Shown here one piece after another: positions 55,358-58,266 of a stretch of DNA of 64,000 bases. The notes under the pieces were generated by a model. That model had not been told where the DNA came from and did not search any database. It worked only from the letters and a program-made list of their open reading frames with translations. Both the position numbers and the translations under genes were made by a program. Source of the DNA: a virus; IMG/VR virus record IMGVR_UViG_3300046333_000090; one strand, 5' to 3'. How positions within the stretch are numbered: the first letter of the stretch is position 1; each line of letters opens with the position of its first letter.

Positions 55358-55772
55358 TATGATGTGTTTAAGATATCTAACAATAGACAAAATTGATGGA
55401 ATGATAATTTCAACATATCATTTAAAATAAACCAACTATGTCTTTTTTTGGGGTCACTAATCCACTTCACTTCACTTGTTTTTTAGTCAATTCTAATTCT
55501 GTTTGATATTTTAATAAAAACTCACCAGATATAAATTCTGGCAAGTTTAATTCTGTATATGCCTTATCAGAGATATTATTATAATAATATCTCCATTTAA
55601 AATACAAAGAATTCATTCCATTGTCCTCATTCTTCTTAATAGAATACCCAGTAGTAATTCCTAGTATTCCCTCTGCACATAGGCAAGTTTGATCATTTTT
55701 ATCAACCAAACTACAAAACCCTTGTTTATATTTTGCGAAGTTGTCTTTCAGTTCTTGTAATTTGTTAATCAT
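55348..55772 (-). pseudogene. paralog 4 of the MINKL..LKENF family, frameshifted by a 5-bp duplication
   Basis: GTGAAGTGAAG creates TGA; the other frame gives SWFILNDMLKLSFHQFCLLLDILN, matching the paralog C-termini. Confidence 0.75.
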
Positions 55773-55841
55773 GATAATTTACTCAAAAAAATTAGTTTAT
55801 GTGACTTGAGGGACACTCTAGAACTAGTAGGGGGAGCATAT

Positions 55842-56252
55842 TTATTGTTCATTCAATAAATCTAGCAGCAAAGAAAATTGGGAGAAGGTTAAGTTAATAT
55901 AATCATTAATATCATGCCAAAAAAATGAATCAAATTCTTTATTAATGCTAACAATTTGAAATTTTGTTAATTTTAATTGTTTTTGATGAGTTAATAATAA
56001 AGTTTTAGGAATGGGGTTGGGTAAATTTAATTGTTGATACACACTGCCAGGTATAGTACTATAATAGTATCCTCCATCCAATAGTATCATTTTTATATTA
56101 TTGTGCATAGGAACATTAGCAATTGTTCCCCCCACAGTAATTGCTAATACCCCTTCAGCACATAGAGAACACCCATCAAGAGACACCAATCTTCGGTGAT
56201 ATTGATTATATTTGGCGAAATTCTCTTTTAATTGTTCTAATTTATTAATCAT
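55842..56252 (-). CDS. paralog 3 of the MINKL..LKENF family
   Basis: LCAEG.L motif; start at 56252 by alignment. Confidence 0.75.
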   Translation of the reverse strand: MINKLEQLKENFAKYNQYHRRLVSLDGCSLCAEGVLAITVGGTIANVPMHNNIKMILLDGGYYYSTIPGSVYQQLNLPNPIPKTLLLTHQKQLKLTKFQIVSINKEFDSFFWHDINDYINLTFSQFSLLLDLLNEQ

Positions 56253-56269
56253 GATATATATATATCTAT

Positions 56270-56677
56270 CTATAATTTGTTCAGGATGTCCAGCAGTAAA
56301 ATAAATTGTGGAAAGGTTAATCTGACAATATCGTTTAGATTTGCCCAAGAAATGAGAGAATTAAGACTTTGTAGCATATCTATTTGTCTCGAAGTTAGTT
56401 GTAATTTTTTTGCCCACCAAAGAAGTTCAATTTTTGTTATATATTTGGGTAAATTTAACTCTGTATAATGGTAGCTGGGTATAGAAAACTCAAAATAGCA
56501 ACTATTTTCTTCTTCGTAAACCATATCGTCAGAAAATGAATATTGTTTTTTGATAATTAAACCATTAGATATAGCCAAAATAGCCTCTGCACACAGGCAT
56601 TCGCCAGTCACTAATTTACAAAATCCTTGTTCATATTTGGCAAAATTCTCTTTTAATTGTTCTAATTTATTAATCAT
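56270..56677 (-). CDS. paralog 2 of the MINKL..LKENF family
   Basis: LCAEAIL...W..LND...LTF.QF.LLLDIL. Confidence 0.75.
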   Translation of the reverse strand: MINKLEQLKENFAKYEQGFCKLVTGECLCAEAILAISNGLIIKKQYSFSDDMVYEEENSCYFEFSIPSYHYTELNLPKYITKIELLWWAKKLQLTSRQIDMLQSLNSLISWANLNDIVRLTFPQFILLLDILNKL

Positions 56678-57101
56678 GATATATATATAGTTTGTCCAGA
56701 ATGTCCAGCAGTAAAATAAATTGGGAAAAAGTTAATCTGACCCCATCGTTCAAAGATGCCCAACAAATTTGTTCGCCTTCCTGCATAATAGCCTTAATTT
56801 GCTTTTTTGTCAACTTTAATTGTTCCCCCCATCCTATTAATTTTGATGTAGATATAAGCAACGGCAAATCTAAATTATCATAGATATTATGAGGAATATT
56901 CAAATATAGATATACCCCATTAATACAAAACATGGAGACGTTATGTTCTGGATGAATTTTGATGTCAAGACCAGCAGTAAGTCCTAAAATTCCTTCTGCA
57001 CAAAACTCGTATCCATCTTCATCTGTATTTCTCATCAACCTGCCGTATGTTTGTTCAAATGTGGCGAAGTTTTCTTTTAATTTGGTTATTTTTTCAATCA
57101 T
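56670..57101 (-). CDS. paralog 1 of the MINKL..LKENF family
   Basis: FCAEGIL...WASLND...LTFSQFILLLDIL. Confidence 0.75.
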   Translation of the reverse strand: MIEKITKLKENFATFEQTYGRLMRNTDEDGYEFCAEGILGLTAGLDIKIHPEHNVSMFCINGVYLYLNIPHNIYDNLDLPLLISTSKLIGWGEQLKLTKKQIKAIMQEGEQICWASLNDGVRLTFSQFILLLDILDKLYIYHD

Positions 57102-57402: not shown

Positions 57403-57741
57403 TCAAGATAAATCACGAAAAAACTCACCAATTTCTATTTTTTTCCTTTTTATTGAACTAAATAATTTAGGGACTACCCAACCTTGTCTATATCTGGAAT
57501 GTATTGTATTGTAGCTTAGATTAAATGCAATGCACCATTCGCGCAAAGTTTGTTTTTTTTTAATTGGTACGAATTCCCTGTTGCAATATTCACATACTTT
57601 TGATTTCTTTTGATATATATATATATTATGAAATTTTTTATAATCTGATAAATTTTGATATCCATGAGATTTAACATGAAATCTTAAATTATATTTGTCA
57701 TAGAAGTTATTACAATTAACACATATTACACTATTTAACAT
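57403..57741 (-). CDS. zinc-finger/HTH protein, probable endonuclease remnant
   Basis: C..C...H...H, C.YC.REF, then QTLREWC.......TI.SR...GW; no nuclease motif seen. Confidence 0.55.
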   Translation of the reverse strand: MLNSVICVNCNNFYDKYNLRFHVKSHGYQNLSDYKKFHNIYIYQKKSKVCEYCNREFVPIKKKQTLREWCIAFNLSYNTIHSRYRQGWVVPKLFSSIKRKKIEIGEFFRDLS

Positions 57742-57844
57742 AACAGTTAATTTATAAGATAATATAATTATTATAACACAAATCCCCAGAGTTATCCAGG
57801 GATTTGTGTTATGTGTTATTCAGTTTTACATGATGAGGCTTATA

Positions 57845-57937
57845 CTATATGGAGTTGAAATATTCTGCAATAGTTATAATTTTTACTTCATCGGTAATTC
57901 GGTTTTTGATGGTGATTGCGGTGTCACCTGTAACACA
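57845..57937 (-). other. atypically short (30 aa) split-intein N fragment
   Basis: CVTGDTAITIKNRITDEVKIITIAEYFNSI*: intein block-A pattern immediately after the Walker A Lys. Confidence 0.8.
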
Positions 57938-58266
57938 TTTCCCGCTTTGACGAGGTTGTCCCCAATATTAGCTAACCAGTTTATTGATTATGCGGCAATC
58001 GGGGACAAAAAAGGATACTTAACGACAACGAAGCGGTTGCGGTCAAACGTCTTCAGCAATTTTTCCTGATATTTATAAAGTTTTATATTTGTCAACCCTT
58101 TATCCAATGTAACGATTTTGATGTAATTATTTGCAAAATAATTTATATCTTTTTTGCACTTCATAAATTCGTTTACATTATCCTCATCAAATTCTATGTC
58201 TACACCAATTCTTTTTAGGAGCGGATTCGATTGAAAAGAGTTTTCCAGTTCTTTTTTTCTTGCCAT
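57845..58266 (-). CDS. gp17: terminase large subunit gp17, N-terminal fragment: join(58266..58012, 57952..57845), ending in split intein N
   Basis: NPLLKR, EF.KC..D..YFA.NYIKIV.LD.GL..I.LY.YQ, RFVVVKYP | RQSGK (Walker A), then CVTGDT... Confidence 0.88.
57953..58011 (-). other. 59-nt coding gap forming a hairpin between matching CCT codons (candidate ribosomal bypass element)
   Basis: TTGTCCCCGAT...ATTGGGGACAA stem; stops in both the upstream and downstream frames. Confidence 0.7.

Follow-up and report, generated by a model that had tools for sequence, protein, structure and literature searches.

A coding gap in the N-terminal piece of TerL

The 64,000-nucleotide stretch of viral DNA analysed here (the window) carries, on its minus strand, an open reading frame that starts at 58266 and aligns with the N-terminus of gp17-type large terminases (TerL). 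Its 85 codons from ATG to a CCT proline codon (58012-58266) form the N-extein, which includes the YQ adenine-binding motif and the β-strand preceding Walker A, and the homology of all relatives ends exactly at this proline. The minus strand then reads GTT AAG TAT CCT, a gap of 59 nucleotides, and CGT CAA AGC GGG AAA TGT, placing the gap between VVVKYP and RQSGK. The gap occupies 57953-58011 and can equally be placed at 57956-58014, with its final three bases (CCT, 57953-57955) being a copy of the last extein codon (58012-58014), the candidate take-off codon. An original prediction made from this sequence had put the element at 57953-58014; the gap does lie there, but those 62 nucleotides count both CCT codons. 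Coding resumes with R-Q-S-G-K of Walker A (57938-57952) in the −1 frame relative to the N-extein, and is followed directly by a 30-aa N-fragment (IntN) of an atypical split intein with Cys1 (57848-57937) and a TAG stop (57845-57847), so that the gap sits about six codons upstream of the intein. A terminator-like hairpin (57749-57814, minus strand; −25.8 kcal/mol) comes after the IntN stop.

The remainder of the enzyme lies outside the window, on the 109-kb contig G000. A middle TerL gene (G000:C1 100860-103268, minus strand) encodes a 122-aa IntC ending in HN, followed by Ser+1, and then STT and Terminase_6N; it is the sole Terminase_6N match of the contig and is 27 kb away from the N-terminal piece. 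Joining R-Q-S-G-K to S-T-T would rebuild Walker A. A third, divergent TerL gene (G000:C1 104544-105764, plus strand) begins with another IntC and carries the Terminase_6C nuclease domain. Judged from these sequences, TerL is made from three genes, whose products would be united by two atypical split inteins. The original prediction had placed the gap in the terminase gene, which is correct as to TerL, but the gene is not whole, being the 85-aa N-extein and 30-aa IntN of a three-gene TerL. A short Cys1 IntN after GK together with a separate long IntC makes the first intein one of the AceL/GOS type by sequence. A GOS terminase split intein with a 122-residue C part has been described (PMC2677866), of which AceL-TerL and GOS-TerL are engineered relatives (PMC11766414). 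The intein here shares with them the short IntN (30 aa as compared with 25-37), the 122-aa IntC, the Walker A GK|S position and a gp17-like terminase, and the second short-IntN split of this TerL, with Ser1/Cys+1, resembles GOS-TerL. By contrast, a coding gap upstream of IntN is mentioned in neither report (PMC2677866, PMC11766414). The middle gene, which ends in the second short IntN, was also seen to hold a LAGLIDADG intein whose apparent end is G-E-Q followed by Thr, and not the usual His-Asn.

Past the proline, the upstream frame continues for seven codons to a TAA at 57990-57988, while the downstream frame is closed by a TAA at 57970-57968 and has no ATG, GTG or TTG before PRQSGK. Removing 59 nucleotides yields R-F-x3-K-x-P-R-Q-x-G-K, the spacing found in 164 uninterrupted relatives as well as in an insert-free close relative (L181). 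Exact skipping of the 59 nucleotides is therefore required to make the enzyme, and crossing of the gap by a single frameshift or by restart is ruled out by the reading frames. On both points, the restored KYP-RQSGK spacing and the insufficiency of frameshifting or reinitiation in this phage, the original prediction was borne out.

The insert is evidently present in real DNA and no artefact. The 92-aa product that ends within it occurs as an exact copy on 17 contigs, and three loci from three samples and independent assemblies (L085, L086 and L087) are 100% identical to the window over 2-3 kb (2.2-2.8 kb) including the insert. Of the 179 related loci retrieved, the motif K-x-P-R-Q-x-G-K-S/T is unbroken in 164, and three have an intein at GK|S. 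A second intact terL elsewhere in the genome had been named in the original prediction as evidence that would count against it; no second copy of the N-terminal part was found in the 109-kb contig (estimated to be 59% complete). Nor did blastn-short reveal a second copy of the insert there, as a multi-copy MITE- or byp-like element should show. Pattern scans of IMG/VR detected the element in TerL N genes only: two exact-pattern scans returned no match and one returned L084 only, while the 13 other hits of a further pattern scan were rejected as hairpins that are unrelated or lie between genes (one of them, L188, sits ahead of a nuclease gene). The matches listed in a metagenome scan with the N-extein profile were all distant, uninterrupted relatives, and a collection of 5.8 billion predicted proteins contained no product of a spliced or deleted version of the six insert-bearing alleles described below.

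A profile search for short TerL N fragments recovered proteins of 92-94 aa that end seven residues past the extein (P0002, P0003, P0004, P0006, P0007 and P0009) together with many 119-124-aa fragments reading straight through R-Q-x-G-K into a short IntN; the split intein occurs without the hairpin in P0005, P0008, P0010, P0011, P0014, P0022 and P0023. Three further fragments (P0058, P0076 and P0088; L195 2501-3385) looked like a recoding site with a one-base loss in the Pro codon, but were dismissed as assembly errors because their source is polished long-read contigs with many broken genes.

Homologous hairpin inserts in six phage lineages

Folding confirmed the 11-bp basal stem and inner stem of the original prediction. 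The basal stem pairs 57998-58008 with 57956-57966 and is followed by an internal loop and an 8-bp apical stem, the TAA stop of the upstream frame (57988-57990) being situated in the apical part. The minimum free energy over 91 nt was −27.7 kcal/mol, compared with −18.6 ± 2.8 for shuffled sequences (z = −3.3, with none of 200 shuffles as stable), and the insert by itself folded with −23.1 kcal/mol. With the take-off codon in the P-site, the C-run of the 5′ arm would occupy +11 to +14, and the G-run of the 3′ arm ends 7 nt upstream of the resume codon. A genome-wide scan for strong 66-nt hairpins returned 161 sites, mostly terminators. A role of the insert hairpin as promoter or terminator was rejected, given that no T-run follows it and the −35/−10 spacing is wrong.

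DNA was obtained for five truncated forms beyond the window, giving six lineages for comparison (the window, L082, L083, L084, L097-L099 and L100). The five further phage lineages carry a homologous hairpin of 59-63 nt, with N-extein identities of 49-79%. Their comparison demonstrated a conserved anatomy in which neither the exact insertion point nor the length is fixed. The insert follows P (P|R) in the window, L084 and L100, and also in P0007 as judged from the protein tail only; it is found at R|Q in L097 and at Q|S in L082 and L083. Gap lengths across the six lineages are 59, 59, 62, 62, 63 and 61 nt, and IntN is in frame −1, −1, −1, −1, 0 and +1 relative to the upstream ORF (0 in L082 and +1 in L083). 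Each insert begins with a 6-7-nt pyrimidine-rich leader and has a basal stem built on a C-run and a G-run. Stem covariation, which had been proposed as a check on the original prediction, was found in both tiers, with compensatory changes at at least five positions of the basal stem and covariation in the apical stem too; pairs were counted from individual folds, MAFFT with RNAalifold having misaligned the 3′ arms. The apical loop sequence is conserved in five of the six lineages, and fold energy is kept between −21 and −25 kcal/mol in all of them.

Two distances on the 5′ side are constant. In every lineage the C-run is located at +10 to +14, counting from the first base of the final extein codon, and the in-frame stop is the 8th codon past the take-off codon although the insertion point moves by 3 or 6 nt. 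The original observation that no stop directly follows the take-off codon accordingly extends to all six lineages, with the A-site codon after take-off being TTT in four and TTC or TGT in the others. The 3′ side is looser. The G-run, which doubles as the 3′ stem arm, ends 7-10 nt short of the resume codon and 4-7 nt short of the landing codon, and the stem base is separated from the junction by 3-6 nt on the 5′ side and 3-9 nt on the 3′ side. The matched take-off and landing codons, which the original prediction had treated as a signal, are not conserved: the pair is cognate in two of the six lineages (CCT/CCT in the window and CAG/CAA in L082), the other four having CCT/TCA, CCT/ACA, AGA/TGA and CAG/CTT. 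The landing codon nevertheless retains 2-3 of the 3 take-off bases in five lineages, and the CCT match in the window may be left over from insertion and not serve as a signal. In three lineages we also noticed that 6-7 bp can form between the K-F-P codons ahead of the gap and the G-K codons after it (L084 664-752, minus strand; L100 2747-2832; L083 4241-4328). Such an outer helix would bring the coding edges together; it does not form in the window, where Tyr stands in place of Phe.

Purifying selection was demonstrated on both flanks of the insert. The N-extein of insert-bearing lineages has a pN/pS of 0.11-0.36, and GK plus IntN gives dN/dS values mostly of 0.1-0.6 (below 1) between these lineages, indicating that both sides are translated. 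Given that IntN is under selection in frames −1, 0 and +1, the downstream part appears to be translated, but not via one fixed frameshift, and because any retained residues would fall at differing points of the P-loop in each lineage, the insert must be skipped whole. The compensatory stem changes and the fold energy kept in six of six lineages indicate that the RNA structure itself is selected.

In a tree of the N-extein, which is weakly resolved with its 85 residues, six of the seven insert-bearing alleles fall into one clade alongside two insert-free alleles, and L100 is placed elsewhere. The insertion point does not track this tree, the window, with its insert at P|R, being sister to L082, which has it at Q|S. 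The interleaving of insert-bearing and insert-free alleles points to repeated gain, loss or re-insertion. In four lineages, synonymous divergence is smaller for IntN than for the N-extein; an abrupt change in DNA identity at the edge of the insert, marking a cassette boundary, was sought and not found. An origin in which a target-site duplication of all three codons (P-R-Q) later decayed was considered and rejected, the 6-nt T-rich 5′ tail belonging to the element in all six lineages.

Possible routes across the gap

Programmed translational bypass of a cassette that resembles that of gene 60 but is unrelated to it is in our estimate the most likely mechanism, with a probability of about one half. 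Ribosome hopping over gaps is very rare in natural genes, and structures known to stall ribosomes are spaced at +10 to +14. In the proposed pathway, the ribosome would reach the last extein codon (CCU here, and AGA or CAG in relatives) with the G:C core of the basal stem then positioned at the mRNA entrance (+10 to +14). It would stall with its peptidyl-tRNA kept, slide or hop across the folded hairpin, and resume reading 59-63 nt further on at the codon that restores the P-loop. Ribosomes that do not hop would decode seven further codons and terminate at the conserved in-frame stop, whereas the joined 121-aa product would trans-splice via its 30-aa IntN with the IntC-headed middle piece. We infer the ribosome to be the agent of skipping, and the geometry of its stall, from several features of the inserts. 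Only the 5′ side is kept in codon phase with the upstream ORF while the 3′ length is free, a pattern more in line with a signal that a ribosome reads during translation than with one recognised by an enzyme that cuts RNA. The G:C core sits at the stalling spacing, the fail-safe in-frame stop is conserved, five of the six landing codons retain 2-3 take-off bases, no spliced or deleted form is on record, and gene 60 offers a precedent in T4-like phages. Re-pairing in the P-site is known to be permissive (bioRxiv 10.1101/2022.08.31.505936).

Several observations weigh against bypass. The hallmarks of gene 60 are absent, since the codon after take-off is neither a stop nor a rare codon (UUU, UUC or UGU) and cognate pairs are the minority already described; a cognate CCA within the 3′ half of the gap in L084 is a potential premature landing site; the entire gap is one stable hairpin; and the distances from stem base to junction vary. 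A role of the G-run as a mini-Shine-Dalgarno element is doubtful because most genes of the phage have A/T-rich leaders without Shine-Dalgarno sequences, and the G-run is probably just a stem arm.

The main rival explanation, which we consider unlikely, is that the hairpin is a tiny intron-like element excised from the mRNA before translation, enzymes of the phage or host rejoining the ends. It would account for gap edges that coincide with the base of one conserved hairpin with covarying stems and for an apical sequence conserved in five of six lineages, which could be a protein recognition site, and it neither needs matched codons nor constrains the gap length by frame. However, the window had no Rfam hit at the gathering score (57880-58080 gave chance-level matches only at E ≤ 10), leaving no family, intron or ribozyme match, and 59-63 nt is far under the size of self-splicing introns. 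The variable junction-to-stem distance argues against a structure-measuring endonuclease, and both the conserved in-frame stop and the 5′ codon-phase constraint would be without a role; that the spliced-form protein is absent from the 5.8-billion-protein collection counts weakly in the same direction. If the hairpin is nonetheless removed at the RNA level, it would represent a new kind of intron. We regard as improbable that the sequenced gene is a silent or conditional allele, with active TerL-N arising only after precise DNA deletion in a subpopulation or from a copy in the unsequenced 40% of the genome. The estimated completeness of 59%, the deletability by replication slippage of palindromes between short direct repeats (CCT...CCT), and the interleaving of alleles on the tree would all be in keeping with such an allele. 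By contrast, a usable flanking repeat exists in the window and L082 only, none of the six alleles has an insert-free variant on record, both flanks are under purifying selection across lineages up to 50% apart in protein, and the 109-kb contig lacks a second copy.

The two remaining rivals fare worse. It is very improbable that two polypeptides are made, in which case the 92-aa product would stop in the loop, the opened hairpin would free the G-run as a ribosome-binding site, RQSGK-IntN would be initiated or reinitiated, and the TerL N piece would be non-covalent. The layout does recall translational coupling, the loop containing a stop and the G-run lying 7-10 nt ahead of the resume codon; in addition, an ATG is in frame two codons ahead of R in L100, and a TTG is in frame in L082. 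Yet the window and L097 have no in-frame ATG, GTG, TTG, CTG or ATN from the last stop to Cys1, and in L097 a TGA lies directly before the resume codon; the split would moreover separate the β-strand from the P-loop, and Shine-Dalgarno sites are rarely used by this phage. The reading that we find hardest to credit is that the insert is decoded, by a −1 frameshift on the U-run or by readthrough, so that TerL would gain about 20 residues ahead of the P-loop. CCU UUU UUG followed by a hairpin is indeed a frameshift-like layout, a U-run with a hairpin occurs in four of the six lineages, and the −1 frame is open through the gap in L084 and L100, but only in these two. It contains two stops in the window and the TGA in L097, and is irrelevant in L082, which is in frame 0 with two TAG stops, and in L083, which is in +1; the extra residues would also fall at differing P-loop positions in each lineage. 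The L100 locus (2747-2832), with its in-frame ATG two codons ahead of R-Q-A-G-K and its open −1 frame, is the only variant for which restart or frameshifting could serve.

Concerning initiation in this phage more generally, most genes lack a Shine-Dalgarno sequence and many start right after a conserved A/T-rich leader with TTAAATTTAATAA (G000:C1 19284, 33642, 45228 and 84118), which suggests that the host initiates without Shine-Dalgarno pairing. No tRNA genes were found in the contig.

Relation to known bypass elements and homing elements

Two groups of elements, the gene 60 family and the byps of Magnusiomyces, are established cases of long-distance translational bypass. The byps of Magnusiomyces capitatus mitochondria are hairpin inserts of 27-55 nt, present in dozens per genome and with mobile behaviour, that allow a sense codon after take-off, have no need of Shine-Dalgarno pairing and tolerate codon mismatches. 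The TerL insert likewise forms a hairpin of tens of nucleotides, with a sense codon after take-off and non-matched codons; unlike the mitochondrial, multi-copy byps it is found in a single copy per genome at one site. In T4 gene 60, a 50-nt coding gap lies in a topoisomerase gene with homologues in Myoviridae and is carried by a MobA homing-endonuclease element (bioRxiv 10.1101/2022.08.31.505936; PMC5462505). Gene 60 cassettes are mobile with MobA, with an insertion point within ±1 codon, and a survey concluded that the cassette 'remains unique' (Manning and Atkins, bioRxiv 10.1101/2022.08.31.505936).

Similar to gene 60, the TerL element is an untranslatable insert of about 50-60 nt in an essential, highly conserved gene of T4-like phages. 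Its insertion point shifts by one or two codons between lineages, its distribution is patchy among close relatives, it adjoins a gene split and probable homing-element remains (here an HNH-like relic, in the window and L083 only), and it combines a hairpin with a G-rich tract a few nucleotides before the resume site. A stem-loop at the take-off site is likewise found, starting 3-6 nt after the take-off codon, but it spans the whole gap, unlike that of gene 60: one two-tier hairpin takes the place of gene 60's small take-off stem-loop and AU-rich tail. The host gene is also different (a TerL N piece and not a topoisomerase), and no sequence resemblance was noticed when the insert was set against the description of the cassette in the preprint, a comparison made without alignment. 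No stop or hungry codon follows take-off, the stop coming 7 codons later; take-off and landing by the same tRNA would be possible in two of six lineages only; and the partner element is a split intein, whereas that of gene 60 consists of CTE/NTE tails. The large terminase of Streptomyces phage phiHau3 contains 10-nt inserts that are candidates for bypass, with mass-spectrometric support in E. coli (PMC10732093). Both cases feature a TerL broken by short non-coding blocks that need exact skipping, although the phiHau3 gaps are 10 nt long, at other protein positions and in high-GC actinophages, as compared with the 59-nt hairpin here. A full-text literature search on bypassing and terminase returned only the phiHau3 work (PMC10732093), a review, a 2009 paper on fractured genes and a 2024 gene 60 preprint, with a gap of this kind described in none.

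If ribosomal bypass is the mechanism, the TerL inserts would constitute a second, unrelated phage bypass family. Its six natural variants differ in take-off codon, gap length and frame and lack both the stop codon and a strict codon match, and would thereby help to tell essential gene 60 features from accidental ones. The gap also neighbours an atypical split intein of the kind used by protein engineers, natural IntN expression of which may depend on recoding. A wider generalization, to which we give tentative credence at best, is that a new hairpin bypass class (sense codon in the A-site, base-to-base crossing of a complete stable 60-nt hairpin, and landing by stem-base geometry with neither a cognate landing codon nor a Shine-Dalgarno anchor) may have spread into the Walker A coding site of terminases across many phage groups unrelated to one another, or else that a protein-dependent mini-intron of about 60 nt exists in bacterial-virus mRNA. 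That the gap gates DNA packaging is speculation.

The surroundings of the gap bear marks of mobile elements. A 112-aa ORF with two Cys pairs (57406-57741, minus strand) gives a partial HNH-endonuclease match (phrog_3377, E = 2e-6); a truncated copy occupies the same place in L083, and the ORF is absent at the other loci. It is probably what remains of a decaying, free-standing homing endonuclease. If T4 gene 60 and MobA are taken as a guide, the cassette would have arrived with a homing element and may shield Walker A DNA from a homing nuclease. Ala-start, class-3-like inteins were observed at GK|S in three uninterrupted TerL relatives (L053, L059 and L062, from about 390, 3154 and 3238 onward, respectively), indicating that the Walker A site is a repeated mobile-element target. 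The Walker A site of TerL is thus a spot at which inteins, homing nucleases and coding gaps pile up. Farther along the minus strand of the window (55467-57101), four tandem paralogous ORFs of 101-168 aa, 34-44% identical and with no Pfam or PHROG match, sit between the TerL N piece and a 1768-aa fibre-like gene, and homologues of them follow the TerL N piece in L082 and L083.
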